From: Antedon mediterranea
Lineage: Eukaryota; Animalia; Echinodermata
NCBI RefSeq assembly: GCF_964355755.1
Contig: NC_092677.1
Coordinates: 1,324,101-1,388,100, forward strand
DNA: 64,000 nt
Direction of reading: 5' to 3'
In this document: piece after piece, positions 30,815 through 63,184 of the stretch
Layout: each line of letters begins with the position of its first letter
How positions within the stretch are numbered: position 1 is the stretch's first letter
Program-made: the position numbers and the translations under genes
The notes under the pieces: generated by a model
Seen by the model: only the letters and a program-made list of their open reading frames with translations
Told to the model about the DNA's origin: nothing
Database searches by the model: none

Positions 30815-32612
30815 TATAAAGAAGCAATACCAAATATGGTAGGCCTAAATAGAAAAATAATGTAACTAACGATATTATTTTTTAAGACTTCAGCTCATCT
30901 CCCTCCACGGCCATTCTTGCGAACTGAAACTAATGCACGGTACTACAAACTACATATTCGCAATAATGATGGTTAAATTGTTACAGTGACAATCATTTGA
31001 CAGGGCCTTCTAAATCATCTAGTACGAACTCGAATTTTACGGTATTTTAAATAAGATTCAGAATAAGATTCACTATCTCTCTGGTATAAGATCTGAATCT
31101 GAAATTGGCTTTGAATATATGTGTTTACCAAGACCCCTTTTACCTTTATCAATTGCATCCATCTTCTGAAAAATCAAACGTCAGAATGTTCCAAATATTC
31201 TTTTTTTATTTGTCGCCCTCTTTTCAATTTATATTAACTATCAGTATAGTCAAAGATCGATCTTTGCTATACTGTATAGTTCAATCTTTTGCCATCGATT
31301 CATTTTAATTAATTTAATACAGTTGACTGTAGTATATGCACGCGCACATATATATATAATCACGATGATTAACCTATTTGATTAACAAAATAATTAACGA
31401 AAGTTTATTGTGCTTATTGATATAATGTTAACGTTAAAATAAGAAAGGAGGAGTGTAGTATATGCACGCGCACATATATATATGCGTACTGCGCATATGG
31501 TCTGACGAGGTTAGCCTACAAAACGTTCTATACTATTGTTCATGACTACTAGTTGGTTTCATTAAATACGTTCATTATTATACTCATCTCAACGTACTTA
31601 TTAATTTGTCTACGACGATACACGACATTGACATTATCCTCCAAACAGTGTTTACAGATTGTTTACTTTCTTGTTATGTAAAACTACTTGCTATAGGCCT
31701 ACTATATTGTGAACGATACATATAGGGATAGTGGGAATTAATCCAAACAATTGGACATGTACATAGTTACCACGAATAGTACTGTGTCACAAAGGAAGTA
31801 AAAACAAATGTAAATGAAACCGGATTCAGAAGACACAAGAACCACCACACCAGTCATATTATGTACTATAGAGTGTCAAGAGTGATATAATTTTGGATTT
31901 TCAGGTTGTTAGGCGCGGCGTGACCTTAACAGAAGGAATGGCGATATGTGTGTGTGCACTAATTTTCCTGATTTTCCAAATTAAAGTGAATGTAAGTAAT
32001 CATTTTTAATATAATTTTAATAACAATAAAATTTATTATGTTTAAATTAATATTACAAGTATATATAGAAGATAAGTGTGGCTTTAATTTGTTTGAATCG
32101 AAATTTAGAGTTTATGTTACCGAAACATTTAGCTTGTTGCAATTAAAGGGTAATCCGACCTGTTGTGTATAATATCACCGTGATAATATAATATTTTTTT
32201 AAAGTAAAATTTGTATTAGAATATCAAATTAATTTAGTACTGTACATTACTTGCGTTTTTTTATTGGTGAAAAAATAAGTCCCACAGGTTTAATCGGTGC
32301 ATGTTTTCAACGTTTATTAATTATTATTGTCTTTAACACTAAATAATATTTAATATACAAAAGTAATTTAATAACTAGAATTTAATTCGTCACTTTGACG
32401 AATTATAGGTGATGATCATTGTTATCCTTTTACTGAAATTAATTTTTTTTAAACATGCACGTACGTTAACATAGGATAAAAAAATGTTGATGTATACCAT
32501 CCTATTATATGCTTATAGTGCTGAGTTCTGCCTATTATATGCCATATACAATATGTACAGTATTAGGTGAAATTACGGGACACACATGTTCTAATTTTTT
32601 GGTATGATGGAA

Positions 32613-34039
32613 TCTATATATAAATTTACGTAAGGGCAAAATTCGGTAAATCGCGCCTTACTTCTAGAATTTTTACTCGATGGTATATAAAGTTGGTTCG
32701 TACTTTCGGTACTGATTTTAACCGCCTGATGTAACCCTGTTTACTAATTAAATTAAGTTAGATAATTAGTTATTGACGATTAAAACGAATTTAGGTTCAA
32801 CGATTTGCCCCAAATAGGGGTGTTTTCCGATCGTGGTATACACTGTCTAATGGATGTCCATCTTGAAAAATACCCGCCACAAAAATACGAGGAGGCTTCG
32901 CATTTTCCTATCTCCTCCTACGATAATTGTTTTTAATAGCTGAAAACTGGTTGAACAGCTAGAGTACAGCATCATAATGTTGAAGACAGGCCGATTTTCT
33001 TTAAAAAATACTATTTTGATAGATTTAATATACAATTATACAAATGTATTGATTTGCGATGAATGGAACATTCCAATCTCTGTTTCACAAGTGTCTATTC
33101 TCTCAGGCGTCGTAAAGGCAAGTACAGTACTGTATACTCGAAATTCGATCCATTTTTGTTTTCAATCTGTGCTGCAGAGGTTGGATATTATTTTTTTTAA
33201 ACGGATAAAGAGCTAGCGTTTTCACTCGCCGTATATTATGTACAAGTCTTTATTATTGCAGTTAAACCACCCACATCATCACCTTTCCCTCACTGGCATG
33301 AGTAGCGTTGTAAAACCAGTAGAGAATAGGCCTACGGTACATCACATGCCCTAAACGCAGAACAACTTTGGTGGGTAGGGTAGGAACCAACTTAAGTATG
33401 AATTGGCTCTAAGAAACAATTGAAAACCATTAGGCCTACTAATTAATTGAGTTAGATAATTTAATATTTATTGACGATTAAATCGAATTTATGATTTTCC
33501 CCGAATAGAGGTGGTTTTCACAAATTGTTTTACATTATATTATAAACATATACACGTCGTAGTGATGTATCGTTACATGTGCTGTACTATTTCAATCGAC
33601 TAGGACGGTGATAGTTTCAACAAGTATTACATCGCAATGTTTTATTGTGTTTAGTGGTATATTATTTGTAAAACATGAAAGCAATTAATATTTCGTTACT
33701 AAATGGATAAAGAATATATTTTAACATTGTTCCTCTTTGCACCCATCCTCTTCCCCATCCCTCAACCCTAATGTTACATACAAAACACAAATTAAGTTTG
33801 TTTAAATTTGACTTAAACAATTGGTCTTATTTTGTTACAAGTTTCTCTTTCGGAAGTAATAGGGTGCTAATTTTAGTTGAGTACATAAATCACAGTGTCT
33901 ATTTATTCGTTCCTGTAAACGACACACGGTATTATTGTCCTGCGGTACGTACATTTGAAATCGCCAGTTTTTTAACGCCGAAATTATTATGTATTCGAGA
34001 ACCATCTGTGGGCACGACCTAGATGGTACGCGAGCGAAG
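32613..34039 (+). mobile_element. Helitron-like element, copy 2 (3' hairpin truncated)
   Basis: Shares the first ~460 bp and last ~450 bp with copy 1 in inverted orientation; the middle differs. Confidence 0.75.
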
Positions 34040-35268
34040 ATGACAAACTCAAAGATGACAATTTCGAAAGAAAATGAATTGAGCAAATAAATATAAGAAT
34101 TGGAAGAGAATCTGGCACGTAGAAGCGCTGTGCATAACTTTGACGAAAAAGATGAACAACTACTTCTTAACTTCATCTGGCCATATGTTAACGTCACAAC
34201 ATCCGATAGGCTTGATTTTTATATGAATTCATATCTATATTTCATCAGCTTTCATAATAGATTATAATCATCAAGGTAACCTTCAATTCTGAAGAGCTGT
34301 AAGGTATTCAAATTTACGGCAAAGGTGAAATTACACGACCTACGTAATTCAAGTTTTTACGCATGATGACGTCATCAAAATGAAAATGGTGTCAACTCAT
34401 GATAAAGATAATTAATTAAGCAAGCACATACTGAAATTTGTGTGAAATTCGAGCACACATAACCGAGATGCGCTCTGTTGAATGTGATAACCTACACAAA
34501 AAGATAAAAAGTGTAAAATGTGTACATGATATGAATTCATATTTACAACTCAATGGCTTCCCGAATAAGTTAAACAAATTGGGGGTCATCTTCCATTCTG
34601 AAGAATTATTTTCATTTTAAAAAGGCCTATTTTTCACAATTTTCAGAACTTTTGAGAAATTAATGTGCGCATTTTGTCATTTTTAACGTGCTCGTATAGC
34701 GTTATTTTAAGTCGGAATGGACTCAAAATCAGTGAATGTACTAAGAATTGTGAGTAGAATGTGATATGTACATCAAATTTTATTTTTACGTTTTTTAGGA
34801 ATCGCTTGCGCAGTAATTTTTTGAAACACGCAAAAGGCCTAATTCTTGCTCTAAATTGATCAAAACTTAATTTTGAGCTTTATAAATTTTAAATGCGCGA
34901 TTTCACGCGCATGACCCTACGTTCGCGTGCGTTTTTTTTTTTTTTGCTAATATTTTTACTCTTGACCTGAAGTTTACGTGTAGTGAATTTCATTATTATG
35001 TGATAATTAATTATGGAGATATGATTGATAATGTGATTTCACAAAATGGCGTATAAATGACGTCACGGATGAGTGATCACGCTGAAATGCTTATTAGGAC
35101 TAAGTTACAGTCCAATTGAAAGAAATTGTGAAATTTTGGTAATCATTGACATTTAACTTTTTGAGATATTTGTTACACAAAAAGTGTACAGAAAGAAGAA
35201 AAAGAAAAATAATAAAGATTTTATACAATAACAATAAGTGATCATTTTATTCTAAATGATCACCTAAT
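34040..35268. mobile_element. Unclassified interspersed repeat, possibly Helentron/HINE-like
   Basis: CpG-richer block ending in an AAG-rich tract and a small GTGATCATTT..AAATGATCAC hairpin; it truncates Helitron copy 2. Confidence 0.4.
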
Positions 35269-38248
35269 TAGTTATATTCTAGGTATCAGTTTTTATTGTT
35301 TTCATATTCCGTTATGATAATTACTTTATTCCTATATACCATTTACTATTATGTACTAATTTGATTTTAGTTACTTTTTGTTTTTGTTCAGGCACTTTCA
35401 ACACAAGCTTTTGCTTTCCATAAATTGTGCCTCCTTCATAATACTGTATTGTTTTATTCATTTTAAAGATGAGAAGAAAAAAAATTGTATTGTTTTAACT
35501 ACCTTACTTCTCGTTATTATGAATTTTGTATTGTATTATTTATATTTTGTATATTATGAAGGAAATAAATGAAATATGTTGATATCAATTTTGCGGTTAG
35601 GCCTATAGTAGTTCTGAAAAGAAGTGGAGTTTCTCGACGATGAGTGTGATTCGACTGTCCTCAGGGTGAGAATGTAGGCAGGGTCCGGGGTAATGGGGAA
35701 TATAGTTGCCTTATTATAACCAACTACTTTTTTATTTATATTTGTTTTAAATTATACAAACTACACTAGCTGAAGATTCGTTATAGGTTGTTTTTTAAAT
35801 ATAAATTTATATAAATTAAATATAAGCCATGTTGTTATTGAAGGCGTATTTCACGAATTGTATTTATTGATTGTTTAATTCTTGTTTTCATTATACATTG
35901 CTTTACCCATTCATTTGTGTGTATATAGTTGTTACAAAAGGTCAAAATCCTGTTGTCAATGTGCAAGATGCTAACGTTAAATTAGGTGAAGATGCTGTTA
36001 TCATCTGTGATTACACACTTGATCCTACCAGAACTTTTCAGGGTGTTCAATTGTTCAATAGTAATTCAGATGGAGATAAGTTGGAAAAACGTCTTATTAA
36101 TACTTTACAGTCAAATAGAAATGGTAGATATACAGCTGACACCACACAGACTGGTGTAACTACTCTCACCATTGCAAACACAGTGTTGTCTGATGATGGA
36201 TACTATCTATGTAACATTTTTGATTCACTTCTTATCAGTGGTAGTCAACATGGAAATCTTACTGTTCAATGTAAGTATTAAAATGTGTCTCAATATCTAT
36301 ATTTAAAATATACTTTAAATAGTGCTGTATAATCATTACTAAAACGTATCTGTATATGTTGAATAAAGATCATTCATTACAGATCTAGAAAACCCTGTTT
36401 TGGAATCAGATGCATTATCTGTCAAGATAAATGAAACGGCAACATTTACATGTACTAACCTTATCGGTAAACGAACACCAATTATTGTCAGATGGAAAAA
36501 AAATGGTAATGCACTTGATGATTCTGATGCAGAAAAGTATCCATCTTCTGATGCAACATTAATTATTAATAAAGTGGATGAAATGGATGAAGGAAGTTAC
36601 CAGTGTGTAGCAGAGAATGCTGCCTATAGTGGAGATGATGGAAAACCGAGTATTCCTCTTATACTCTCAGTAGGTTGGTTGCAATAAAGTTGTTAAACTA
36701 AAGATACAATATCATATTTTATTGAGATCATAGCTATAATTATTATATGGCACCCAAGGGTCTATCATAATTAGACGGATTATTTCAACAATTATGTATT
36801 ATGCGGTAATGGAAATAAAGCACAGCTACACAGTTTAATTATAAAAGGCCTTTTTATAATATAGAACAAGACAATATATACAACCAATAGATGCACTGAC
36901 TATGTTTAAATAACATAGTCATATTATACTTCCTATTTCTTTAGCATTGCCAACACCTTCTTCTACATCCAGTAGGTCAACTACACGTACATTTCGTTTG
37001 TTTGCATTGCACTAATAGTTTTCCATTTTTAGGCCCTATAATTTTGTGAATAAAAAATATGACCTGTGTATATTTGTTATGTCACAATCACATGGTAACT
37101 CTGATCCTCCTTGTAAATCGTTCGTACACAGAAATTCCAAAAAGTGAGGGCATATGTAATTCAACTGGTCTTGTTGTTGGACGTTTGTTGGTGTGCTAAT
37201 TGGATTCATTACCTGTTTGCTTGTGGTTTTTATCATCAGCAAAATCGCAGGTAAAGTATAATTCAGAAAGTAGAACCAAAAGAGTAAAATAGTTGAAGGT
37301 TTGGTGAAATACCGTCACAAGTAATGGCAAATGTATTATCATTCAATTTACTTTTGATGTTTTATTTTTAAAGGCACCGACATCAAATAATGACAACCAA
37401 TCAGGAGTAACAATGCTATACTTCAACTTTAATTATTGGCTTTCACTTTGATCATTATCATCATTGTCACCAATACACAATAAATTGTGATTTATCTTAA
37501 TTTATTAATGATTCATTGTAATTCATTTAGCTGCAGAGGAGTATATTACGTGTACTGGAGAGGCAGATAAAGAAACAAACCACACGTACGAAGATTTACG
37601 CTGAAGAAAGACGATAACCAAGCTGTATATGTAAATGTTAAAGCAAAGAGGAACAAACAATAATACATGTTCACTATAAAGTTAGTAATACATTATAATT
37701 ACAATGGTTTAAAACAATCACACTGATTTTAGTAAGTATGGAAATATAGAGCAACATGTGATGTAAAGATGAAAACCATAAGACATAATTGAACAATTTA
37801 AAAAAATAGAAAAATGTAAAAACGATACATTCAATTTTATTTCTAGTTTGATTTTTTAGAATTAAAATATATATTATATTACATATGTATGTATTAGACA
37901 GACATATAAGGTATAAGGAGAGCATAAGAAGGAAAATAAACTAGCCAAATTCTAATTTTGTATATGATGACATAAGTTTGTAAAGCATGTGAAAAACAAT
38001 TGATTGAAAAAGAACATATTAAAATCTAGGGCGAAATGGAGTAAGCATAAGCGCAATGCGCTCTATTAAATAAAATTACTATAGTACTAAAGCGAAAAAC
38101 AATTTTTAAATTCGAGTGGCCATACTGTGACGTCAAAACATCCGAAAGAGAAGCTATATGTTTTACATGAGTTGATATTTAAAATTCATCGGTTTCTATA
38201 ATACAATTTAATAAATGGGGTAGCCAGCCATCCTGAGGAGCTATAACC

Positions 38249-41200: not shown

Positions 41201-41345
41201 GGTTAACCAGGTTTCACTGAAGGCAATGACGGAGAAGGCATGTACGAGTGAGTCTAAATAGTTTGAGATTAAGTCAAACTTATTAACAACACTACGACAG
41301 TTTAGTCCAAATATAGAAAAGTTTGATGATAAATTAGAATGTTCA
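38249..41345 (-). mobile_element. LINE (CR1/L2-group-like) with intact ORF2, 5'-truncated, no ORF1
   Basis: AATAAA plus (GAATT)n tail at 38249-38290 on the minus strand; ORF2 has endonuclease and RT. It is inserted into another repeat (~38020-38248 and ~41345-41830). Confidence 0.92.
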
Positions 41346-43187: not shown

Positions 43188-45505
43188 ATGAAAGCAAATG
43201 TACAAGTGCGATAGTGCTGTTGTTGTTGTAAATACAAATATTTAAAAAAGATTCACAAAAGGCCGCAATCGTAAATCGGTATTTTTTCGGATTTTTTATT
43301 TTAGTTGCAGATAGAAGTGGTCAAACACAGTGACAGTGGATGCTGCAACAGCCAATGTAGCAATGATGTGTACTCCTACATTTCTGACAGGAGATTCATT
43401 GCTTACTGGCTTAGTCGACAGGTGATGATAGTGGTCAACAAGAATTAGGAAGTCCTCTTGTGATTTCTACAACCAACCAATGGTCGATACAGCTTGTTCA
43501 ATAATAATCTGATAAATAATTAATGTTGAAAGAGATAATGCAGGCAACTATTGTTGCGCTGTTAATACTAATTTAGGAAATGATGGTGAAACCTTTGCAG
43601 CACTCACTGCCAATTGTGAGTAGTAGATGATGCATTTTATACAGAATTAACCCTTATTGACTTTCAAAGTGAGATGATGCTTAAAAATATAAAATATAAA
43701 ATCAAATGCCTATTAATTATCTGGTTGGGGTGCACTGTGAGTAAAAAATACAAATTAAGTTCAGGACAAAGTACAAAAAGAGCAAATGTGGCTGTCATAA
43801 AATATCATAAAAATACAGCTAGTTATGTGTCATACATTTAAGGATATAATTACATTTAGGTCTAATATTTGAACAATATTTTAAAATTGTTAAATGTAAA
43901 CTTTCCATACACAGATCTTGATGAACCAGTTTTTAACCTAATGTCTGTCAACGATGAAACCGCAACATTTAAATGTACTGAACCGGATGGATTGCCAACA
44001 CCAATTACCACCACATGGATCAAAGATGACGTCAGACTTGAGATACTGTCGGTCGTCGTCTTCGTGCAAGGGTGCGTAACTAACGGCTTTGTTGACTGTG
44101 TATGATTTCACGCTTTAGATAGCGAACATTTGATTATATTCGTCGTCTCCTAACCGTCGTGTTTCGTAAAGTCCAAATTAACAATTAATGACGTTGATGA
44201 TGCAGATGAAGGAGTTTATCAGTGTAGAGCAGATAATGCTACTTACAGTGGAACAGATGTGAAACTTAATACTGCTACACTGTCAATAAGTTGGTAGGAA
44301 AATAAACTTTCTATAACTGTTAATAACCAATTACCTGTCGTAATATGGTCCTTTATGGCTAATATTCCTATTATGCTATGTAGTAATTAATTTAAAGCAC
44401 AGCAGCCACACAACGAAAACTGGAAGTTGGGGTAAAATGTTTGGGAAAAAGAATGGGAAATGAATTCTCAACTTTTGCATTGATGGGAAACAATAAGGAT
44501 TTTTATTTAGTTTATTTTAGTAATATAAGAGGCTTTTGTAATGAATGCATGACGTGTTTTACTAATATTGCTTGTTCTTTTCTATTTCTTTATCATTGAC
44601 GACAACATCTTTTATTTCCAGTAAGTCAACTACACGTAGGTTCTGTTTGTTTGCATTGTATTTATTGTAAATTTCCGGGTGTTTGCATTTGCATAAAGCA
44701 AATAAAGGATAGGAATGCCCTCATCCCCAGGATCTGTATTAATGCTTAAAAGGGCTACCTTTTTGTATATATTTTTCAACACTACATTATTGTGTATTAA
44801 AACACATGGCATTGAACATTTTGTTTTTGTGGTCCTATTTATTGTTTAGTTGTATTTCTTTCCCGGATTTTGCGAAAAGCAAATAAATGATAGTGAATCT
44901 GGGGTGGGTGCTCAAAAGATCTGCATGAGTGCTTAAAAAGTAAAATATGACCTTTGTATGTTTGTCAACATTTTACATTATTGTAAAACACATGGAGACA
45001 CTGATCCTTCTCTCTTAAGCGTGGTTCCCACTAGCGACGTCACACAAGGACGTAACGCAACGCAAGTGAATTGACCAATCACAAGCGATGGCTTATTCGC
45101 TTGTGATTGCTAACTGTCTATAACTTCGCTTGTCATTGGTTAAAACACTTGCGTTGCGTTTACGTCCTTGCGTTATGTTCTTGTGGGAACCAAACTTTAA
45201 CGAGTGCGGGCGTATGCATTCAACTGGTCTTGTTGGAATGACGTTTGTTTGTGTGCTCATTTGATTCATTATTTGTTTCTTGTGGGCTTTATTATCAGCA
45301 AAAGTAATAATAAATAAAAAATAAAAAAGTCAAAGGTAAAGAATATTCTGAATCATAAAGTAGAATTACAAAAAAGGAGTAAAATTCTCAAAGGTTACAT
45401 GAACTACGGTACACTGCACAAGTAATGAAATGGATTAACATTAAGTTCTTGTTGATGTTTTATTTTAAAGGTATCTACATCAAAAAACAACAACAAATTA
45501 GGGGT
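43188..45505 (+). pseudogene. Degenerate Ig-receptor copy (type-B IgV)
   Basis: Frameshifted IgV at ~43305-43615 (..DAATANVAMMC..ERDNAGNYCCAV..ALTAN). Ig2 43915-44290 has a ~130-bp foreign replacement at ~44046-44177. The stalk acceptor is lost, the TM exon (~45215-45335) is broken by a MITE and mutations, and the tail exon is missing. Confidence 0.85.
45018..45196. mobile_element. PIF/Harbinger-type MITE
   Basis: TIRs AGCGTGGTTCCCAC / GTGGGAACCAAACT with internal foldback; TTA TSD. Confidence 0.8.
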
Positions 45506-45549
45506 AAGGATGCCATACAACTTTCAATACCAATTTTCACTCGTCATTA

Positions 45550-46212: not shown

Positions 46213-48212
46213 ATGTCCTTCTTAACAGAAGTAATGGCGATATGTGAATGTGCACTAATTTTCCTGATTTTCCAAAGCGACTGTAAGTAGAAACTTAATT
46301 GTCATATATGTTATTAGTAGGGTCCTACTATTATTTCAACATAGACTATAAGACTGAAATGGCAATGGACGGTGACGTAGTAACCAATTTTTATTTATTG
46401 TATTGTTTGTATTAATTGATTGGTTTCATTAAATATATTACCACGCATTCATTTTCTGTGTATATAGTTATAAATGGTCAAAATCCGGTTGTCAATGTAC
46501 AAGATGCTAACGTTATATTAGGTAAGGATGCTGTTATCACCTGTAGTTATACACTCAGTGGTTCAAGAACATTTAATGCTGCTCAGTGGTACAATAGTAA
46601 TTCAGATGGAGATCAGTTAGACATCCTTGTTAATACTGCAGATACAAATCCAAATGGTAGATGTACAGTTAATATCACAACAACAACTCCTCAAAGTGGT
46701 ATAGCTACTCTCACCATTGCAAACACAGTGTTGTCTGATGATGGATACTATCAATGTAGAATTATTGATTCATCTACTTTCTCTGGTGAAAACAACGGAA
46801 ACCTTATTGTTCAATGTAAGTATTAATAAATCCACGAATGATATACTGTATATTTAAGTCATTTAAAAAATAAATTTTGTAAAAAAGGCAACCATCATTT
46901 TAATACTTGGTTTTGTCATTTCAGATCTGGAAACCCCCGTTTTGAAGTCGGACACATTATCTGTGAAAATAAATGAAACCGCAACATTTACATGTACTCA
47001 ACTTATCGGTGAACCAACACAAATTACTGTCAGATGGACACAAGAGAATATTGCACTTGATGTTTCTGATACAGACAAATATCCGTCTTCTGATGCAATA
47101 TTAATTATTAATAAAGTTGATGAAATGGATGAAGGAAGTTACCAGTGTAGAGCAGAGAATGCTGCTTACAGTGGAGATGAAGGAAAACCGAGTAATCCTC
47201 TCGAACTCTCAGTAGGTTGGTTGCAATAAAGTTTTTATAACTAATGATATAATAATATCATGTTTTATTGAGATCATAGGTATATTCTATGGAACCAAAG
47301 AGTCTATCAAAATGAGACGGAATATTCCAACAATTATGTATTATGCGGTAATGGACATAAAGCACAGCTACACAGTTTAATTATAAAAGGCCTTTTTATA
47401 ATATAGAATAAGACAATATATTAAACCAATAGATGCACTGACTATGTTTAAATAACATAATCATATTATATACTTCCTATTTCTTTAGCATTTACGACAA
47501 CTTCTTCTACATCCAGTATGTCAACTACACGTACGTTTCGTTTGTTTGCATTGCACTAATAGTTTTTCATTGTTTGGCCCTATAATAATAAATATGACCT
47601 TTGTATATTTGTTATGTCACAATCAAAATGGTAACTCTGATTCTCCTGTAAATCCTTCGTACACAGAAGTTCCAAAGAGTGAGGGCGCGTGCAATTCAAC
47701 AGGTCTTGTTGTTGGAATGACGTTTGTTGGTGTGCTCATTGGATTCATTATCTGTTTGATTGTGGTTTTCATCATCAGCAAAATAAGGAAGACAAAATCA
47801 CAGGTAAAAGTATAATTCAGAAGGTAGAACAAAAAAGTAAAATAGTCGAAGGTTAAGTGAAATACCGTCATACGTAATGGCAAACGTATTATCATTCAAT
47901 TTACTTGTTGATGTTTTATTTCAAAGGCACCGACATCAAATAATGACAACCAATCAGGGGTAAGGAGACTAAACTTCAACCTTAATTATTCGCTTTCACT
48001 TTGATCATTACCATCATTGTCACCAATACACAATAAAGGTTTGCATGATTGTAATTCATCTTACTTTACTGTTGTATTTTTTTTAGCAACAGGCGTATAT
48101 GACTTACACTGGAGAGACAGATAAAGAAACAAACCACACATACCAAGATTTACAGAAGAAAGAAGATAATCAAGCTGTGTATGTAAATGTTAAAGCAAAG
48201 GACAACAAATAA
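46213..48212 (+). CDS. Intact spliced IgV-Ig2-TM receptor with Tyr-motif tail (V type A, Ig2 type A)
   Basis: Exons 46213-46282 (MSFLTEVMAICECALIFLIFQSD), 46468-46815, 46925-47215, 47489-47515, 47667-47803, 47927-47959, 48087-48212. All GT-AG, phases 1,1,1,1,0,0, open to TAA. Confidence 0.85.
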
Positions 48213-49103: not shown

Positions 49104-49655
49104 GGGTCTTGTTGTTGGAATGACGTTTGTTGGTGTGCTCATTGGATTCATTCTTTGTTTGCTTGTGGGTTTTATCATCAGCAAAATAAGGAAGTCACAT
49201 GCACAGGTAAAGTATAATTCTGAAAGTAGGACCAAAAGCAAAAATGACCAAAGGTTTAATGAAATACCGCACACTTACATTAAACATTAAATATGATGTT
49301 TTATTTTGAAGGTACCTACATCGAAAAACACCAACCAATCAGGGGTAAGGATGTTACTTCAACTTTAAGTATTCACTTTACTCATGATGATCATCATCAT
49401 CAATTATTATTACTATTGTCACCAATATACCAATTTTACCAGGTTTACACGATTTTCATTCTTCTTTTTCCATGCACTAAACTTCTGTATTATTTTTAGC
49501 AGCAGGCGTATATGACTTATACTGGGGAGACAGATAAAGAAACAAACCACACATACCAAGATTTACAGAAGAAAGACGATAATCAAGCTGTATATATAAA
49601 TGTTAAAGCCAAAAAGGACAAAAAATTATATACATGTTTAAAATAAAAATAAAAT
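49104..49655 (+). pseudogene. Orphan TM + 33-nt + tail module without ectodomain
   Basis: The TM exon begins abruptly at GGTCTTGTTGTTGG, fused to unrelated repeat DNA. The downstream exons are open, with the stop mutated to TTA (short extension). A leader-like remnant and the first ~30 nt of a V exon follow at ~50400-50552. Confidence 0.8.
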
Positions 49656-52600
49656 AAATATATTATTATATTAATATTATTATTATTATTAATATTATTA
49701 TTATTAATGGAATATCATTACTATGGTTTGATTAATTAAATTAATTTAATTAAAACTTGCATGTATTAGACCAACTTTGATTCGTTACTTTAAATTTAAT
49801 GTTTGAATGCATAGTACATTGACAAATAATGACAATACCAGCAGGAAAAAAAACTAGACAATCAATGATTTTAACACCAATACACATGTAATTTGTATAT
49901 TTTATATTGTTATAGAGTTCTTTAATTTAATTTGCATTCGAGATGTGCTTTGGTTGCTTGCTGCCATTTTTTAAAGAGTTAAGTAAGCTTAAATTTATTT
50001 TGAAACGGACAAACTAAATTCTAGGGACAAATTGGACCGAGGTTTTAAAGTTAGGTGCGATTGAGGTTCATTTCTGTTTTTAAGGAAAATATTCAAGAAA
50101 TACCACAGTTTGAGTTTGCACTGTTCTAACGCACTGTATAAATAAGGCCTAACACAATGTCTTTAAATAATGGTTACTAATTAAAAAGATTAATTTGATA
50201 ATCTTGATTTGGACGGAAGTACATTACACTATAATTATGAAGGAAGTAAAACTAATATATCACAAGTGTGAATGGCAATTTCATCACAATAATAACAATG
50301 ACAGGAACAATCAATACTTCAGTATACAATACAGTAGAGTGTGAGACAATAATAGTGAAATAGTCATCACCTAATAAAGCGGAAAAGATTTCTATAATTT
50401 ACAGATTTGTAAATGGAGGCGAAAAGCAAATATGCGATGATTGTAAGTACAAATATTAAAAATATTTTTTTACAAAATGTCGCAATCGTAAATCGTTATT
50501 TATTTTTTCATTTAATTTCAGATACAAGTGCACAAACAACAGTGACAGTTGACAACAAATAATACATTATTCAAGATAAATTAATAAAGTATTAATTATT
50601 GTTAATGGAAGTTTTTACTTATAAGTTTTACCTATAGTGAAACTGACAGAAGCACGGTATATCGCAACATGTGATATAAAGAAGAAAACCATCAAACAAA
50701 ATGTAGCCAACAGTTTATTCAAATGAATAAGTTGTTCGTTATTTTGTAATTGTAGAATTAATTTGCTATAGTATACCAACTTTGACTCATTACTTTGAAT
50801 GTAATGTTTTAATGCATAAGTACAACACCAATACGCTTGTTCTTTTATATTATTATTATTATTCTTAATTTTATTTCGCTTATGAGATGTGCATTGGTTG
50901 CTTTTTGCCATTTTCCATCCGCGTAAGTTAAAATTGATTTAACATACTCGCGCTTATATATTTCTGAGTTTGATTTGAGTTTGCACTGATTGACTCTGAG
51001 GTTGTATGTATATTACGATTATTAATTTTACCATCTCAGATCTTGTAAACCTAGTTCCAAATCAATTGTCTTATGTTATTTCTTGGTTTATTGATATTAC
51101 ATACGGTACTCCTATTACCCTTCAACAGTCATGTGTGTAGGCTATCAATAATTTTAAACCAATTTTAATAAACACAAATCAATTTATGATATAATTATTA
51201 TGATTTCGATTTTGAAGGAATTTTGAATGACATTCAATGTGAACGAATTTTGAATGTGACCGTTTTATATGAGTAGAGCCTCTTAATTTTTGTATTTTGA
51301 ATTTTTTTTTTGAAACCAAGTATCGTAAGCTACTTTATAAGAATGTAAACAAAATATGGTTTAGGGGTGTAGTGGTAATAACCTATTTTCCTTGAAGCAT
51401 AACAATGAGTACTGTTCTGACTCGTTTTAAGACAGATAACTGCTCAACTTCCATTTTCGCATTTATTAGGACAACGTATCAAATTTCAAGCGGTAAAAAA
51501 GATAGTGCTCTTCTAACTTTTTAAACACTGCATGCAAAGTCAATACTAATCATGACAACCGCTCGTTGCCAGAGTATTACAACTTTCTTTCCAATTTATA
51601 AAACACATAATCACAGGCATCACAAGTACGGTAAATCTAATCTGGTGACCGGGATAGCATTCAATTATACCTGTGCGCGAGTTTGGTTGCAATAATATTT
51701 AATTTTTGTTTTTAAATTTTAGTGTTACGAGTATACTGTAATTTGATCATCTTAATGATTCAATAAATTTGACATGAACTGAAGTACAGTACACTATGAG
51801 GAAGTAAAAATAATATATCAAGAAGTAGCAAAATCAGTCCATACTCATAATATAACAGGAACAATCAATAAGTACGTAGTATACAATACGATAATTAGAG
51901 TGTGGTAGAGTGCGAGACAATAATAGCGAAACAGATCTGCACCTTATGCAGCGGAATTTAAAGATTTCCTTTTCATACAAATTCGCACCCATACATTTTT
52001 TTGCAGTAAGAAACAATCGCAGGTAGTTAATTTCTCTGGACATTCACCGGCAAAAAGTAAGTTGTTGCAAGATGTTTTATTAAATTATTTTCAATTGTTT
52101 TACTGAATGTTTGGATAGTTTAGATAATTCGTGATAAACGAACAATAATCCTAGTACGTTATAGCATGATCTGGAGGAAGTAAACATTGTTATATCAAAA
52201 TGTACATGGCTTGACAATTTACATTTCTGACACTGTATAAGAAGAATGAATATTTTACGTGAGGTAATTTCCCGACTGTAAAATCAGCGATGGGTATGAT
52301 GATCAACTTTCCTCATTCACATTCTTTTAGAAAGATATAACTGGTAAAGAAAGCCTGTCTAGTGTGGTAATGATAGAGGTCCGAACATGAATATAACTTT
52401 AGAAGTCACGATGCTTAATTGTTATGACCCTATATAACCAAATTATGATGGGTTGAACAATTGTATTCTTATTGACATAAGAAAAACTATTATCTCTAAA
52501 CAGCAACATGAATGAACTGCGGAGAGCAGAAACATGAACACTAGTTGATCATACCCAGTATCATGATGTCGCTGTTGTATGGTAATGAAAATAGATACAG

Positions 52601-52708
52601 TACCGAAAATCGGCTGACTTATCTCAGGAGTCGGAGTAGTCATGGTTTGTAATTTACAAGTCTGTAATCCTGCTGGCTCTGACGCGATTCATTTTCTTTA
52701 CAGATTTA

Positions 52709-55475
52709 ATGGAGGGGATATATGGTGTAATAATAATTCTAATGTTTCAACTATGTTCTTGTAAGTAAGAAATTAGAAAACAAATAAATAAATAATTAAA
52801 ACAAATAATTTAAAAATAATAATAATAAAAATACAAAACTTTCTCGAAACACATAAATAAGTAATTAAAACAAATAATGTTAAAAGTGTGATGTAGAATG
52901 TTAATTTTAGTTAAAATGCTCAGCAGATGTGTCTGTGATTGAATAGAAATGTTATACTTGAAATGTGAAAAAGAAGGTAGGTAATCGAATTTCGCTGACA
53001 TTTTTAAACAAAAAATGTCAGCGAAATTCGATTACCTACCTATAGATTTTTTTCTATGTCAAAATATATAAATTCATATCATGTATTCTATTTCAGTTTT
53101 AAATGGTCAAACTGAACCTATAGTCAATGTACAAGATGCTAACTTTAAAGTAGGTGAAAATGCTGTTATCATCTGTGATTACACACTCGGTGGTGGTACA
53201 AGAACACTCCAGGCTGCTCAATGGTACAATAGCACATCAACAGGAGATCAGTTAAACCTTCTTGTTAATAGTGCTCTAACAAAGCCAAATGGTAGATATG
53301 CAGTTGATACCACACAAACTGGTGTGGTTACTCTCATTATTGCAAACACAGTGTTGTCGGATGATGGATACTATATATGTAGAATTGTTGATTCACCTGA
53401 CGTTGAAACTGGTGAAAATGTTGGAAAGCTTACTGTTCAATGTAAGTATGAATGTTTACATCATTTAACAATGAATAAATATTTTATATTAAAAATAAGT
53501 GTGATTGTGAACAGAATGGTGGTCTTTTAATGTTTACCAGTGGCTTACCAATAATCAATTAATATTTTATTTCTCAGAATAAATTGCACATAAAACTAAC
53601 AACAAATATCTAAATATCTACCAAGAAAAAAATAATAATAGGAAGGGTAAGACTATCAAACAATATCGTTGGTCAAAGAGAGAAGCTATCGCTATTGAGA
53701 GTACATTATATTCAATTAATATACTAATTAAACTAGAGTATTGAACAATTTGAGAAAGTATTCATAAAAAAAGATAAATAGGGAACGCCATATAAACAAA
53801 CATCATGCCGGTACTACACTAATTGAGATACAACAATAGTCTGATGCGTTTTGATAGTTGATTTCTGGAATATACAATGCATCTTTTTAGTTTATACACT
53901 TCGACATGGTGAATGTAAGACTGTTTATTTTGCCTTTACAGATCTTGAAGAACCAGTTCTAAATCCAACAGAATTGTCTGTCAACGCAACAGAAACTGTG
54001 ACATTTACATGTTCTAACCTTATTGGTGTACCAACAATTACCGTCACATGGATCAAAGATGGCAATGAACTTGGTGTTTTTGATACAGACAAGTATCCGT
54101 CTTCTGATGCAACATTAACGATTAATGACGTTGATGAAGAAGATGAAGGAGATTATCAGTGTAGAGCAGAGAATGCTGCTTATAGTGGAACAGATGGTAA
54201 ACTTAGTAATACTGCCACACTGTCAATAGGTTGGTGGGAATAAACATTTTGATAAATAATATATTTTATTGGCATTATAGTATAAGTATGTTCTGCATGT
54301 CAAAATTATAAATGGAATATTCATATATATTATGTCATGCGGTAACAAAAATAAACCACAGCTATACAGCGAAATCTGAAAGTTTCAGTTTATTAAAGCC
54401 ATTTTTATAATATGAACGCATGACGTGTCTGACTATTGCTTGTTTGATTTATATTTCTTTAGCATTAACGACAACTTCTTCTATACCCAGTAAGTCAACT
54501 ACACGTAGGTTCTGTTTGTTTGCATTGTATTTATTGTAATTTCCGGGTTTTTCCATTTTCGTAAAGCAGGATAGGAATGGGAGGGGATATCCCCCGCCGA
54601 ATTCCAATGATCTGCATGAGTGCTTAAAAGGGAAAATAGTGATGACTTTTGTATAACATTTGTCAACACTACATTATTGTAAACATGTTTAAAAGACATG
54701 GAAACACTGATCCCTTTGTAGGCCTATGTATGGTTTAGTTGCATTGCCTTCCGGAATTTTGCGAAAAGCAAATAAAGGATAAGAAATCTGGGAGAGGGTG
54801 CAGACAGGATCTGCATGAGTGCTTAAAAAGTAAAATATGACCTTTGTATAAACATTTTTGAAATAACATGGAAACACTTATCCTTCAGTATTAATTGTTC
54901 AGTTTTAAGTACAGAAGCTCCAAAGAGTGAAAATGATTGTAATTCAACTGGTCTTGTTGTTGGAATGACGTTTGTTGGTGTGCTCATTGGATTCATTATC
55001 TGTTTGCTTGTGGGTTTTATCATCAGCAAAATAAGGAAGTCACATGCACAAGTAAAGTATAATTCAGAAAGTAGAACCAAAAGCAAAAGTGTAGACTTGA
55101 AATGACCAAAGGTTTAATGAAATACCGCACACTTAAGTAATGGAAACTATTTAAACATTAAATTTGATTTTAAAGGTACCTACATCGAAAAATACCAACC
55201 AATCAGGGGTAAGGATGTTACTTCAACTCTAATTATTCAATTTCCCTCATCATCATTATTATTATTTCTATTGTCACCAATATATCAATAAAGGTTTACA
55301 CGATAATTCTTTTTTTGCATGCACTAAACTGTTGTATTTTTTTTAGCAGCAGGCGTACATGACTTATACTGGAGAGACAGATAAAGAAACAAACCACACA
55401 TACCAAGATTTACAGAAGAAAGACGATAATCAAGCTGTATATGTAAATGTTAAAGCAAAAAAGGACAAAAAATAA
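52709..55475 (+). CDS. Intact spliced IgV-Ig2-TM receptor with Tyr-motif tail (chimeric: V type A, Ig2 type B)
   Basis: Exons 52709-52760 (MEGIYGVIIILMFQLCS), 53097-53441, 53942-54229, 54463-54489, 54903-55051, 55176-55208, 55347-55475; phase-compatible and open. Confidence 0.85.
52975..53041. repeat. Perfect 31-bp inverted repeat with 5-nt loop
   Basis: AGGTAGGTAATCGAATTTCGCTGACATTTTT-AAACA-AAAAATGTCAGCGAAATTCGATTACCTACCT. Confidence 0.95.
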
Positions 55476-56168
55476 TATACATGTTTAAAATAAAAATAAA
55501 ATAAATATATTATAATTATTAATGGAATATCATTACTATGGTTTGAAACTACAATCACATACCTATTGATGGTTATATTATAGAAATAAAGAGAAATCAT
55601 AACCTTGAGAAAGTGTATTCTTTCTCTTGATTTAACTCTTAACGCGTACAAATTTAATAAAAAGGAAATGTGATGCTGCAATTTGTTTTGCATTAACTAA
55701 ACAAAAAGTACTTAGCCCCAGAATTTATCATACGGTAAATAGGAATATTTGATGTAAAGATGAAAACCATACACATATACTTGAAACATGAAAAAAAAAA
55801 GATAACTAACACAACTTTGTTGAAAATGTTATTTCTTGTATGTTGGCAATAAAACGTGCTTGTATTAGACCAATTTATTCGTTACTTTGAATGTAATGTT
55901 TGACTGCATTATTGCATTGATAATGACCATTATACCAGCATAAGAAAGAAAATAAACTAGACAATTATTCTTTATTAAGAATAAGTCTTTTTGAGGAGTA
56001 GTGATAACAAAAAAGTTTAGACGGGAGAGCTTAACAACAGTGAACGTTCAGGGTGTATGTAATTGAATCAACTCGTATTAGGCCTACTTTCATATAATGT
56101 CACAGAACAAGGAAGGACAATTTCGATTTATATTCGATATTCGCTATACTAGTAATTCTGTCTTTGTG

Positions 56169-59145
56169 ATGATGACTTTTTGTTTGCTGCTATTTGTTCT
56201 TGTATTTGGTAAGTACCAGGCTTTAATGTTTTGTGGGTGCTACTATAAGTTAAGTCTTTGTCTATGTAGAGCATCTTGTGTATATGTTTGTATTATGTTC
56301 TAGTGCAGTATATGGAGAGCCATCTCGATAGTGCTTTGCACTCATGGCAATCCTCAGGGTGCTGCACGGCTGTGTTGTCATGTATTGTTGTGCCTGAAAA
56401 TTGAATAAAATAAAAATAAAAAATAAAATTAACATTTGATTTTCAATTTTTTTTATAAAACCATATACATGTAGGCCTATAGTACCTTTCCGTCATTGTT
56501 TGAGATACAAATAATCATCATGCATGTTATTTTCGAATTTATAGAGGTCGTTCTAACTTAGGTTAACAATTATAAAAGTAAACTATTAATTACAAAATTT
56601 TGAAATTTGCCGGACCACTGGTTTGGTTTGTGCGAGAGCCCAGAACGGAAAACACAATAGAAAGAATGCATTCACTAGAATGTTGATTGTTGTCGTATCT
56701 TTCTGATTTTAATACTTTGCAGCATAATGTTATCAATTAATCAAATTTATTCACCTCCCTTAGGAGAAACATATAAAAACTCTACAGCAAAATAAAACAC
56801 ATTAAAATAAAGATTCACATGAATCAATAGATTAAAATGGTTTTAACGAGTTAAATAAAGTGTCAAAACCATTGTGAAATAGGGCAGACTTGTTATATTT
56901 CAAAATCAAGTTAAGTAACTTATTTAGTTTCAGATGCAAGTGCACAAACACAAGTGACAGTGAATGCTGGTACAGCAAAAGTTGATGAAGCTGCAACAAT
57001 GATGTGTACTTATACACTTGTACCAAATGATGCATTACTGCAACTGTCTTGGACAAAAGCTGATGAGAATGGTCAACCAGTAGGGAATGCTCTCGTCACT
57101 TCTACAGGTCAACCAAACAATGGTCGATACAGTTTTTCCAACGATAATCTTATAATAACTGATGTTGAAAGAGGTGATGCAGTCAACTATCGTTGTGCTG
57201 TTAGCACCGTTAATGTAAATCCTGGTGATGACTTTGCTAATCTCACAGTCTATTGTGAGTATATGTTTTGGAGCAAAAAAATTTTTTTTTTAAATTTATA
57301 TAAATATGTTTATTTCTGGTACTGTACAGTACATGTCAGTTAGTACAGTAATTTTAATTTCATCTTTGAATCAGAAGTTTCACAATCAGAAAAACAAATG
57401 AAACCAATAATTTGGATAAAAAGTAAAAGATATATCATCATCTATTGTGATATTCAATTTATTTCGGTGGTATGATGGTAATTAACTTTCCAATTGATGT
57501 GTTTGCCTTTTAGAGTATAATGTAATCATAATGGTATCATTTACAAATTTAATCTAAAAAATGTATATATAATATGATATTAAAGTGAAAATTATAATGC
57601 AGGGATGTTATTTACATCAGAACCAAACGAATATTCAATATCCTATGTATGTATTATATTGTCAAAGAAGAGTACTAAACATTAACAATTACTGTATTAC
57701 AATTGGTAGGCATGTCAATTGTGTAATTTTAAACAAATGAGTATCCAAGAACTGTACAGTATAATTTTGCCATTTCAGATCTTGAAGTACCAGATTTGAA
57801 ACCAGTAGAATTGCGTGCCACATTAAATGAAACAGCAACATTTATATGTTCTGAACTTGAAGGTTTACCAACACCAATTACCATCACATGGATCAAAGAT
57901 GGCAATCCACTTGGTGTTCCTAATACAGACAAGTATCCAACTTCTGATGCAACATTAACGATTAATGACGTTGATGAGAGAGATGAGGGAGCTTATCAGT
58001 GTAGAGCAGAGAATGCTGCTTACATTGGAGAGGAGGGAAAACTTAGTAATACTGCCACACTGTCAATAGGTTGGTGGGAATAAACATTTTAATAAATAAT
58101 GTATTTTATTAGCATCATTGTATAAGTCATTTCTGCATGTCATAATTATAAATGGAATATTCATATTACAGTATATTATGTTATGTGGTAACAAAAATAA
58201 AGCACAGGTAAACAGCGAAAACTGAAAGTTTTAGTTTATTAGTCATTTTTATAAAATGAATGCATGACGTGTCAGAGTATTGCTTGTTTGCTTTCTATTT
58301 CTTTAGCATCGACGACAACTTCTTCTATACCCAGTAAGTCAACTACACGTAGGTTTTGTTTGTTTGCATTGCATTGTAAATTTCCGGGATTTTGCATTTG
58401 CAAAAAAAAAAGGATAGCAATTGAAAGGAATATCCCTGCCCCATCCCCATGATCTGTATCATGCCTTAAAAGGGAACATAATGTCAACACTACATTATTG
58501 TAAACATGTTTAAAACACGGCATGGTAACACGATCCTTCTGTATTATTTGTTCAGTTTTAAGTACAGAAGTTCCAAAGAGAGAGAATGATTGTAATTCAA
58601 CTGGTCTTGTTGGAATGACGTTTGTTGGTGTGCTCATTGGATTCATTCTCTGTTTGCTTGTGGTTTTTATCATCAGCAAAATAAGGAAGTCAAATTCACA
58701 GGTAAAGTATAATTCAGAAAGTAGAACCAAAAGCAAAAGTGTAGACTTGAAATGACCAAAGGTTTAATGAAATACCGCACACTTAAGTAATGGAAACTAT
58801 TTTAACATTAAATATGATATTTTATTTTGAAGGTACCGACATCGAAAAACACCAACCAATCAGGGGTAAGGATGTTACTTCAACTTTAAGTATTCAATTT
58901 CACTCGTCGTCGTCATCACCATCATTATTATCACTATTGCCATCAATATATCAATAAAGGTTTACACGATTTTCATTCTTTTTTTTGCATGCACTAAACT
59001 TTTGTATTTTTTTTAGCTGCAGGCGTATATGACTTATACTGGGGAGACAGATAAAGATACAAGCCACACATACCAAGATTTACAGAAGAAAGAAGATAAT
59101 CAAGCTTTATATGTAAATGTTAAAGCAAAAAAGGACAAACAATAA
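56169..59145 (+). CDS. Intact spliced IgV-Ig2-TM receptor with Tyr-motif tail (V type B, Ig2 type B)
   Basis: Exons 56169-56208 (MMTFCLLLFVLVF), 56928-57254, 57779-58069, 58307-58333, 58556-58701, 58833-58865, 59017-59145; phase-compatible and open. Confidence 0.85.
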
Positions 59146-60059: not shown

Positions 60060-60585
60060 CTAATATATCACAAGTATGAATGGCAATCCAGAATCATAAC
60101 GACGACAGGAACAATCAATACTTCAGTATACAATACCGTAGAGTATGGTAGAGTGCAAGACAATAATAGTGAAATAGTCACCACCTAATAAAGCGGAACA
60201 GATTTCCATATTTTACAGATTTGTCATGGAGGCGAAAAGTAAAAATGCGATGATTGTAAGTACAAATATTTAAAATATTTTTTCACACAATGACGCAATC
60301 GTAAATCGTTAGTAGCTATTTTTAAAAATGAAAAAAGGGAAATCTAACCATGCCAAAAAAAAACCAAACCGCAGTAAGGGGATACGCCTTCGTCGCTAAC
60401 CAGGGATCGGTCTAATTGAACCCCGGTCAGTACCAGTTGTGTCTAGGTCATCCCGGACTCAGGCGCTTCCTGCCCTACAAAAATAGATCTAAAAGAATCT
60501 AGGTGGCATGGAAAAGGAGAAAAAAAGTAGATTAAAATATACTAGTAAAGTTGCATTTCCTTCTTGTAACTAGATTGCTGTAAAG

Positions 60586-63184
60586 ATGAAGAGTGTTTCC
60601 TTCTTGTTATTGTTTATTCTATATTTACGACGTAAGTACAATTCACCAAACTAACCCTATAATTAAGTATTCTCTAAGAGTTAATCAACTTCTTTGTTGA
60701 TTTGAACAGTTATTAACTAAATATATTTTGCTTGTAAATTAAATATATCTCTATTTATGGTAGGTTTATGGCACACCAGGATGGACATACATAGTTATGT
60801 CCGTCCTAGCGTGCCATATAGGTTCAAACGCTAGATATAGGTTAGCTAAATACTGCATGAGGCCTGTGACATCATGACATACTCATGTTGCTTTACTGTC
60901 GCTGTGCTACTAATTGTGCAAATAGTTATATATACATATATATATATATACATTTTCAGTATTTTTTGTTTGTATTGTTTGCATTTCCTATAATTTTGTT
61001 TCCAGAAATGACTAAAAAACCTTTCTTGACATCAACACAATGTTTAATAAATGGTAGTAGACATACAGCACATGTTTATAGCAAGCTATCTTTAAAAATG
61101 AGTAACAAGCTTTATCTTTTATAACACCAAATCAACGTAGGCCTACCCTAAACTCCAAAAACTTGCAATAAAAGTGCACAATATGCAGTATCTATAATAA
61201 TTACTGTACAGTTATTGTTTAGTTTTAGGTACACATGCACAAACTACGTCTGTGACAGCGGGTGGTGATGCAGTTAAAGTTGGTGAGGTTGCGACGATGA
61301 CGTGTAGTTACACACTTCCAAATGGAGAAGTGTTGGATCGACTGGTTTGGTTCAGAGCTGATGCTGATGGTACTCCAGTATTAGGCGACCCTCTCGTGTC
61401 TATAGTTGAAACAAGCAATGGTCGTTACAGCTTATCTAATGACAAGGATCTTATGATAAGAACTGTTGAAGTAAATGATGCAGGCAACTATCTGTGTAGA
61501 ATTGTAACACAAAATGTTCAAACTGCTGAAGACTATGATGAACTTATAGTTCAATGTGAGTTTGTCATTCCTTTGTTGTTCTTTTTCTAGTGAAAGTTAA
61601 ATACATAAACTCTGTTGGACAATCTTCAAATTACAATAAATAATTATAATCTAAAATTATCAAAATGTAAATAAAGCTGACGTGTTTATGGTATTACATT
61701 TAATAGTCAAAGTTTCTTTCCACTGCAGATCTTGACACACCCGTTGTGACTCCAGCCCAATTGTCTGTCAATATTGGTGAAACAGCACTGTTTTCTACTG
61801 TACATGTTGGATTCCCAACACCAATTACCATCACATGGATCAAAGATGGCAAAGAACTTGATGTTTCTGATATAGAAAAGTATCCGTCTTCGGATGCAAC
61901 ATTAACGATTAAGAATGTAAATGAGATAGATGCAGGGAGTTATAAGTGTATAGCAGAGAATGCTGTTTACATGGGAGAAGAAGGAAAACGTAGTAATACT
62001 GCCACACTGTCAATAGGTTGGTTGAAAAATAAACTTTTTAACTGTTGATACAAACATATCATATTTTTGAATATTTTCTGTAAGGACCAAACTGCCTGTC
62101 ATAATTAATTGGTTAATATTGCTATTATGTTATGTGGTAATAAAAATGAAGCACAGCTACACAACAAAAACTGCTTGAAGTTGGGGAAAATGTTTGGAAG
62201 AAAGAAAGGGAAATGTTTTAATACTGAACTTTTGCAAACGATAAGGTTTCTTATTTAGTTTTTTTTTTTTAGTTATAGAAGGCTTTATGTGATATGACGT
62301 GTTTTAATAATATTACAATATTTCTCTATTTCTTTAGCACTGACGACAACTTCTTTTATATCCAGTAAGTCAACTACATGAAGGTTCTGTTTGTTTGCAT
62401 TGTATTTTAAATTTCCGGGATTTTGCATTTGCGAAAAGAAAAAAAAAAGATAAAAATGGAAAGGATATCCCCCGCTCCACCCCAGGATCTGTATGAGTGC
62501 TTAAAAGGAAAATAAGTATGACCTTTGTATATTTGTCAACACTATATTATTGTAAAAAATTAAATTAAAACACATTGTAACACTATATCCTTCTGTATTA
62601 TTTGTTCAGTTTTAAGTACAGAAGTTCCAAAGAAAGAGAATGATTGTAATTCAACTGGTCTTGTTGTTGGAATGGCGTTTGTTGGTGTGCTTATTGGATT
62701 CATTATCTGTTTGCTTGTGGGTTTTATCATCAGCAAAATAAGGAAGTCACATGTACAGGTAAAGTATAATTCAGAAAGTAGAACCAGAAGCAAAAGTTTA
62801 GACTTAAAAATAATGACCAAAGGTTTAATATACCGCATACTTAAGTAATGGAAACTATTTTAACATTAAATATGATATTTTATTTTAAAGGTACCTACAT
62901 CGAAAAACACCAACCAATCAGGGGTAAGGATGTTACTTTAATTTAATTATTCAATTTCACTCGTCGTCCTCACTATTGTTACCAATATATCAATAAAGGT
63001 TTACACGATTTTCATTCTTCTTTTTGCATGCACTAAACTGTTGTATTTTGTTTAGCAGCAGGAGTATATGACTTATACTGGAGAGACAGATAAAGAAACC
63101 AACCACACATACCAAGATTTACAGAAGAAAGACGATAATCAAGCTGTATATGTAAATGTTAAAGCAAAAAAGGACAACAAATAA
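60586..63184 (+). CDS. Intact spliced IgV-Ig2-TM receptor with Tyr-motif tail (V type B; Ig2 lacks first Cys)
   Basis: Exons 60586-60631 (MKSVSFLLLFILYLR; possible in-frame upstream exon MEAKSKNAMI at ~60226-60255), 61223-61555, 61729-62016, 62338-62364, 62610-62758, 62891-62923, 63056-63184. Confidence 0.85.

Follow-up and report, generated by a model that had tools for sequence, protein, structure and literature searches.

A 64,000-nt stretch of the genome of the crinoid Antedon mediterranea (contig NC_092677.1, positions 1,324,101 to 1,388,100; hereafter the window) carries a tandem run of genes, copies A to H, whose predicted products combine a membrane-distal V-set immunoglobulin (Ig) domain, an I-set domain, a transmembrane (TM) segment and a tail with tyrosine motifs. 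A preliminary description of this DNA had counted four intact and four broken copies on one seven-exon plan, and this was confirmed by self-BLAST and by exon models built from splice signals and the self-matches, with coordinates given along the whole window. The family is real and larger than was then reported, since two further members, gene M and the tail-less copy Z, lie in the window outside the coordinates described earlier, and three TM/tail classes occur across the family.

Tandem receptor genes and their predicted domains

Self-BLAST revealed repeated blocks of 70–87% identity from 35.9 to 64 kb. The tandem copies share the order leader, V-set, I-set, 27-nt Ser/Thr stalk (for which an alternative in-frame donor yields 42 nt), TM, 33-nt and tail exons (Table 1), with the 33-nt exon present in all six copies modelled and the V domain encoded by a single exon of 321–348 nt in all six genes modelled. 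Copies C, F, G and H are intact, keeping all splice sites and open spliced frames of 337, 337, 325 and 314 aa respectively (H counted from V), and A, B, D and E are broken. Copy F is identical over V and I to RefSeq P0001 (protein models are cited by P number), a model that ends before the TM; the leader candidate of copy H matches paralog P0050 and its I exon is identical to the partial model P0075. The I domain of H lacks the first canonical Cys, as do those of P0009/P0013/P0014 and P0050, and because the loss is common to H and its paralogs it points to a retained disulfide-less variant and not to decay of one copy. Read-through of the TM-exon donor (55052-55105, 58702-58755 and 62759-62848) would end the protein in a short open tail and leave out the tyrosine-motif exon. 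The RefSeq models P0010 and P0018 finish after the TM exon and P0001/P0006 finish in FCLFALYLL, so that such ends are possible candidates for a short isoform (or a glycosylphosphatidylinositol-anchored form).

Table 1. Features of the window, in window coordinates; 3′ exons of each gene follow its 5′ exons.
Feature	Position	Strand	Description
Copy Z	350..885	+	Tail-less member, 3′ end; TM exon 350-465, stop 448-450, untranslated tail exon from 773
V + EGF gene	1934-12563	+	Leader; divergent V-set exon about 2470-2812 (Pfam V-set 8.8e-09); eight tandem EGF-like exons
DIRS-like retrotransposon (presumed)	2990-8429	-	Gag-like, reverse transcriptase and tyrosine-recombinase-like open reading frames (ORFs); inverted ends; in the intron after the V exon of the V + EGF gene
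58-bp tandem array	15637-16188		Repeats about 98% identical
Gene M	17020..27170	-	Leader 27170-27116, V1 26713-26378, I 24069 to about 23776; small stalk exons, TM 18083-18024, last exon 17047-17020
High-copy dispersed repeat	30352-30816, 32612-33078, 45548-45972		Roughly 450 bp, three copies; the third (425 bp) replaces the copy B tail
Copy A	31938..37660	+	Pseudogene, V1 lineage; leader 31938-31991 out of phase, V 35929-36270, I 36383-36673; Ser/Thr exon 36945-36971, TM 37132-37250 (4-nt deletion), 33-nt exon 37374-37406, tail from 37531 (frameshift)
CR1/L2-type long interspersed element (LINE)	38456-41434	-	Open frame of 992 aa encoding endonuclease + reverse transcriptase; close downstream of copy A
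Copy B	43310..45503 (approximate ends)	+	Decayed; V2-type exon frameshifted, I exon with insertion; Ser/Thr exon without AG acceptor, TM with stop, 33-nt exon present, tail lost
Copy C	46234..48212	+	Intact; 46234-46282, V1 46468-46815, I 46925-47215, 47489-47515; TM 47667-47803, 47927-47959, tail 48087-48212 (three tyrosine motifs)
Copy D	49105..49646	+	5′-truncated; partial TM 49105-49206, 33-nt exon 49312-49344, tail 49500-49646
Copy E	50523..50555 (approximate ends)	+	~30-nt V2-type exon-start fragment behind a duplicated upstream block
Copy F	52709..55475	+	Intact; 52709-52760, V1 53097-53441, 53942-54229, 54463-54489; 54915-55051, 55176-55208, 55347-55475
Copy G	56169..59145	+	Intact; 56169-56208, V2 56934-57254, 57779-58069, 58307-58333; 58568-58701, 58833-58865, 59017-59145
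Copy H	60586..63184	+	Open frame; leader candidate 60586-60631, V 61229-61555, I 61729-62016; 62338-62364, TM 62622-62758, 62891-62923, tail 63056-63184

Pfam V-set was matched in all five plus-strand V exons, four of them above the curated cut-off (G scored 20.5 bits against 26), and I-set above its cut-off in all five second Ig exons, domain 2 scoring best as I-set/Ig_3. The V domains keep both canonical cysteines, in which Siglec V domains differ, and AlphaFold models back a V-type fold (predicted local confidence, pLDDT, about 90 in the V region; mean 86 for the V1 model). Structural matches of the V1 model were antibody V domains, Nav beta2, DIP/Dpr and SIRP-alpha (14–26% identity), and Foldseek matches were NCAM, LAR, MuSK and JAM-A. 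A homodimer prediction for the copy C V domain scored 0.00, which gives no verdict and was not used as evidence. Between the I and TM exons there is only a Ser/Thr stalk of 9–14 aa, with no Fn3-like domain.

Ectodomains and tails with different histories

The preliminary description had set strongly divergent IgV exons against near-identical TM, 33-nt and tail exons and adjacent introns. Protein identity among C, F, G and H (six pairs) was 25–64% for V, 56–75% for I, 80–91% for the TM exon, 73–100% for the 33-nt exon and 81–95% for the tail, in agreement with the first part of that account; the second holds among D, F, G and H, where TM-to-tail DNA including introns is 91–94% identical, but less so for A and C, which are 80–85% identical to these. 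Synonymous divergence (dS) among intact copies was 0.29 to saturated in V, 0.20–0.49 in I and 0.07–0.26 in TM + tail. Because synonymous sites follow the same gradient, selection on amino acids cannot cause it, and the parts differ in history. Exon exchange or conversion appears to account for most of the difference between V and tail, diversifying selection being no demonstrated cause. Of the pattern of variable sensors, conserved signalling and birth and death invoked earlier, a real birth-and-death family of IgV receptors is supported.

Copy F is a mosaic, with a V1-type V exon on a G/H-type I-TM-tail portion. Of the 81 sites that are informative in V, 70 support CF|GH, whereas F groups with G/H at 100% bootstrap in the I and 3′ trees, and the V tree rejects an F/G/H clade (approximately unbiased (AU) test, p 0.002, with groups named after the trees were viewed). 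With five taxa, AU tests could not tell the topologies apart for the I exon or the 3′ module, and the conflict with V lies there in branch lengths. Among V1 domains variation is highest in the BC, C′-D and FG loops, as expected of a binding surface. The first windows for complementarity-determining regions (CDRs) were picked after viewing the alignment, and the test was repeated with DSSP-defined loops, giving a variation of 0.52 in distal versus 0.23 in proximal loops (permutation p 0.002), or 0.55 versus 0.27 (p 0.004) without the pseudogene and near-duplicates. The ratio of nonsynonymous to synonymous divergence (dN/dS) was ≤0.51 for TM + tail in five of six pairs and often near 1 for the ectodomain (0.28–1.51 in 30 comparisons, pairwise NG86).

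The constant tail of the preliminary description is a property of the tandem run; in the wider family three TM/tail classes share ectodomains. Class 1, that of the tandem copies, has YMTY/YxxY followed by YQDL-x9-YVNV, which is one residue off an ITAM, the tyrosine-based activation motif of immunoreceptors (the loose match has Val as its last residue), and includes a Grb2-type YxN site. The YxxL-x8/9-YxNV pattern is kept in the distant Antedon paralogs P0005 and P0085 and in P0062 of a second crinoid, Anneissia japonica, whose P0081 has a strict ITAM (YEDL-x9-YEDL) plus matches to the consensus of the inhibitory counterpart (ITIM). Class 2, seen in RefSeq P0016, differs in its TM, and its tail has two ITIMs plus one tyrosine-based switch motif (ITSM), namely VTYAQV, LTYVEV and TTYSSV; at least three such motifs arose in 15 of 100,000 shuffles (frequency 0.00015). 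P0016 and the tandem-class P0012 are 97% identical in V, 80% in I and 22% in the rest. ESM Atlas matches to the TM + tail of P0016 scored ≤0.82 and are leads, nothing more.

Gene M, which corresponds to RefSeq P0003/P0007 and lies head-to-head with copy A, 4.8 kb apart, has a TM of the same class as P0016 and a tail of about 10 aa; tblastn within the window found no P0016-like ITIM exons downstream of it. Its likeness to A and C in self-BLAST is confined to the V + I exons (82–88% DNA identity; for the M/C V pair 81% in protein and 87–92% in DNA), and a C-like ectodomain joined to a P0016-class TM is therefore visible in the window DNA itself. A single clade of M and P0016 was rejected for both V and I domains (AU p 7e-62 and 8e-83, 16 rows), each ectodomain nesting among tandem-type genes. 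Given the shared TM class, ectodomains have thus crossed classes at least once.

Class 3 comprises copy Z and RefSeq P0117, P0166 and P0167, which stop right after a TM with two Asp. In copy Z, whose TM is identical to that of P0166, these are two Gly-to-Asp changes. Because class 3 members are recent near-copies, their mutual agreement is not independent evidence of function. The stop of copy Z lies 15 nt upstream of the TM-exon donor, and under the vertebrate 50-nt rule a Z transcript would escape nonsense-mediated decay.

The family in crinoids and among known receptors

Protein and profile searches with cluster look-ups yielded 20 named Antedon models after isoform merging, some of them partial. 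The same longest contig, of 28,587,047 bases, is reported for every one of them, which suggests a single chromosome, adjacency aside. The V exon of copy F is 100% identical to an A. mediterranea RefSeq protein. Close paralogs of C (P0004), F (P0006), G (P0010/P0012) and H (P0009/P0050) occur elsewhere, P0006 and P0010 being near-identical duplicates of F and G. Anneissia has 10 named models and its own expansion, V + I trees clustering by species with 3 label changes versus about 7 when shuffled and none of 500 shuffles as low (quick LG+G4 trees leaving out P0081 and P0017, with P0069 and P0092 given species labels by resemblance only). Word-based searches, which miss distant relatives, found no close non-crinoid one, and vertebrate CEACAM, SIRP, CD300 and NITR gave Ig-level matches only. 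The best 150 representative profile matches were mostly long multi-Ig proteins scoring by repetition; 22 short proteins from the protein and profile searches were examined, and 10 were named. RefSeq names (NCAM-like, CEACAM-like, JAM-like) are automatic and inconsistent. The family thus appears lineage-specific, as had been proposed, and no one-to-one orthologue was found among characterised genes (the best solved relatives are generic Ig proteins at 14–26% identity); the preliminary description had not recognised it as a named family. Other domain layouts occur in P0037 and P0069, with two V domains, P0022, without an I domain, and Anneissia P0118, an adhesion G-protein-coupled receptor model that opens with the same V-I module, by real exon capture or as a fused gene model.

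Transcript support was sought over window positions 44500-57200. None of the listed runs that matched was on record as RNA. A 168-base contig of run X5, whose RNA label is the search tool's guess, passes from the TM exon to the 33-nt exon (GT..AG) and on to the tail exon, joints seen in none of the three DNA-like runs (X1–X3, one sample, in which paralogs confound allelic differences). Some family member is therefore spliced as modelled, although the contig does not say which copy. A second X5 joint leads from the TM exon straight to the tail, via the letters expected for the copy Z class, and copy Z has a 33-nt exon without acceptor, which fits this skip. Several RefSeq models have isoforms, which usually imply transcript support. 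None of three outcomes that the preliminary description had named beforehand as speaking against it (clear orthology, no transcripts, or V divergence no greater than that of introns and tail) was observed.

We compared the family with several known systems. It shares with the CTX family (JAM, CAR, A33, IGSF11) a V domain, second Ig domain, TM and short tail, and its nearest predicted structures lie there. CTX hallmarks are a V domain split over two exons, an extra domain-2 disulfide and a C-terminal PDZ-binding motif; here V is a single exon, domain 2 has two cysteines (one in H), tail ends are basic or polar (e.g. KKDKK) and the genes turn over fast as a multigene family. The Hydractinia Alr genes, as presented in passages of 10.1101/2022.03.04.482883, are likewise an invertebrate cluster of V-set + I-set TM proteins with pseudogenes, domain-1 shuffling and ITAM and ITIM tails, but have an Fn3-like domain, a mean identity of about 24% and tails more divergent than their ectodomains; their allorecognition function was shown there, whereas the crinoid family is known from sequence. 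With the Fn3-like feature and the CTX hallmarks lacking, we place the family in neither. Botryllus FcoRs are also IgV receptors of an invertebrate deuterostome with ITIM or hemITAM/core tyrosine motifs, but have a sushi domain, two C2 domains, 520–610 aa and a paired fester gene (PMC12065747, in part), none of which was seen here.

By analogy, the family would work most like the CEACAM1/CEACAM3 and Siglec-11/16 pairs. In the former an IgV domain is shared by ITIM/ITSM and ITAM-like members, with conversion or recombination and species-specific birth and death (passages of PMC2832619); the crinoid genes differ in having several deep V lineages and generic Ig similarity only, 'CEACAM-like' being an automatic RefSeq label. 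Siglec-11 and Siglec-16 lie head-to-head about 9 kb apart with converted V + C2 exons, comparable to M and A, and Siglec-16 signals through an adaptor (passages of PMC5701461), whereas in the crinoid the class presumed to activate has a tyrosine tail of its own, and the charge in the class with a charged TM is Asp.

Function and competing explanations

We lean towards regarding the cluster as coding for surface receptors with one membrane pass and a V-set + I-set ectodomain, from a crinoid family that would work like paired receptors in recognising foreign or altered cells; an immune or allorecognition role is what we infer. Distal V loops would bind a surface ligand, and once receptors cluster, the tyrosines of the tails would become substrates of a Src-type kinase. 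Through YxxY and YQDL-x9-YVNV the tandem copies might then dock Grb2 or tandem-SH2 kinases of the Syk/Shark type and so trigger uptake or attack, and the P0016 class, given the same ligand, might dampen that response by way of SHP-type phosphatases. Gene M and the tail-less Z class could act as decoys or partner chains, and sensors would keep being re-paired with outputs by conversion and unequal crossover, both at the introns between V and I and between I and stalk.

Near-identical ectodomains on different TM/tail modules bring the paired-receptor analogy closer than the preliminary description could know. Against the definitions in passages of PMC2832619 and PMC5701461, the family has very similar, putatively ligand-binding ectodomains (the P0016/P0012 and M/C pairs), a putative inhibitory member with ITIM/ITSM in P0016, and ectodomains kept alike by conversion or recombination (the AU tests and the likeness of M to A and C in V + I exons only). 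Candidate features of an activating member are loose ITAMs in all four window tails, the strict ITAM of Anneissia P0081 and, in the Z class, a TM with Asp, not Lys/Arg.

Several observations weigh against this reading. No strict ITAM, ITIM or ITSM occurs in the four window tails, and the loose ITAM that all four have arises in 1% of shuffles. Two Anneissia class 1 tails also match the ITIM consensus, which makes class 1 polarity uncertain. P0016, the sole full ITIM member, is an automatic RefSeq model and does not lie in the window; automatic models are sometimes chimeric, as P0010 is; the RNA label of X5 is, as said, a guess. The I tree did not reject monophyly of V1 bearers (AU p 0.27), a conserved EF motif inflates the loop contrast, and no dN/dS test (pairwise NG86) showed positive selection; the pooled CDR pN/pS of 1.24 is driven by pseudogene A and is 0.72–1.23 without it. 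Moreover, the nearest predicted-structure Atlas clusters are adhesion molecules, namely JAM, CAR, IGSF11, A33 and nectin-4 (structural TM-scores 0.46–0.55).

These structures, together with the Foldseek matches, favour a cell-adhesion or wiring code of the JAM/CAR/nectin or Dpr/DIP kind, in which paralogs would label cell types and trans-bind in nerve, arm and skeleton development, the tyrosine motifs serving trafficking or cytoskeletal signalling. The V+I+TM architecture and the adhesion-like TM and short tail of gene M fit such a code, and ITIMs are also found on the adhesion molecules PECAM-1 and PZR. We nonetheless think it unlikely: quick turnover, four broken copies of eight, species-clustered trees and ectodomain swaps between tail classes are atypical of conserved wiring codes, and the CTX hallmarks are lacking. 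Polymorphic V domains could instead determine self versus conspecific non-self by allele-specific binding, as in Alr1/Alr2 or FcoR. The Alr plan and the FcoR IgV and ITIM/hemITAM combination (passages of 10.1101/2022.03.04.482883 and PMC12065747) speak for this, as does allorecognition by adult sea star coelomocytes (PMC9763293, in part), but Alr tails diverge more than ectodomains, opposite to the tandem run, the family has no Fn3-like domain, and the passages of these papers do not mention crinoid allorecognition, so that dedicated allorecognition determinants seem improbable. Least credible is largely neutral churn, in which a recombination-prone, transposon-rich region would duplicate and shuffle one or two functional genes and most copies would be redundant and dying: half of the tandem copies being broken, ectodomain dN/dS often near 1, near-identical F and G duplicates elsewhere and frequent LINE, DIRS and repeat insertions agree with it, but tyrosine motifs and spacing kept in distant paralogs and a second genus, four open frames with all splice sites, diversity concentrated in distal loops and the spliced X5 transcripts do not.

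A hallmark of vertebrate innate immunity is the pairing of IgV receptors that share a sensor but have opposite tails, and the invertebrate parallels Alr and FcoR come from colonial animals. A more ambitious extension of the paired-receptor reading, which we advance only tentatively and think may well go too far, is that crinoids independently evolved a full paired immunoreceptor system, in which exon exchange has shuffled several old IgV lineages between activating chassis, inhibitory ones (ITIM/ITSM) and tail-less ones with an acidic TM, all on one chromosome, in a locus like the leukocyte receptor complex that possibly holds echinoderm self/non-self receptors. The gene pair with 97%-identical V domains and opposite-looking tails makes the paired-receptor question directly testable, and the answer would help to tell whether the logic of paired receptors is ancient among deuterostomes or has been invented again and again. 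The 2006 sea urchin genome papers and later amphioxus and lamprey work reportedly mention TM genes that combine a V domain with ITAM or ITIM, which may reduce the novelty. The full-text literature searched, with most subscription journals outside its scope, held no description of the family or of echinoderm paired Ig receptors. Echinoderm cells do reject allogeneic cells, histocompatibility genes being treated as hypothetical in the passages of the sea star paper concerned (PMC9763293), and the available part of a review of invertebrate Ig-superfamily proteins names echinoderms once, in a phylum list (PMC11999971).

Among the neighbouring features, the CR1/L2-type LINE is apparently intact and recent, and the element within the V + EGF gene is one that we take to be DIRS-like from its ORF motifs. 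Seven EGF-like exons of that gene are complete, with eight cysteines each, and no TM exon was seen in it; the wider family also holds V+EGF members (P0011, P0155).

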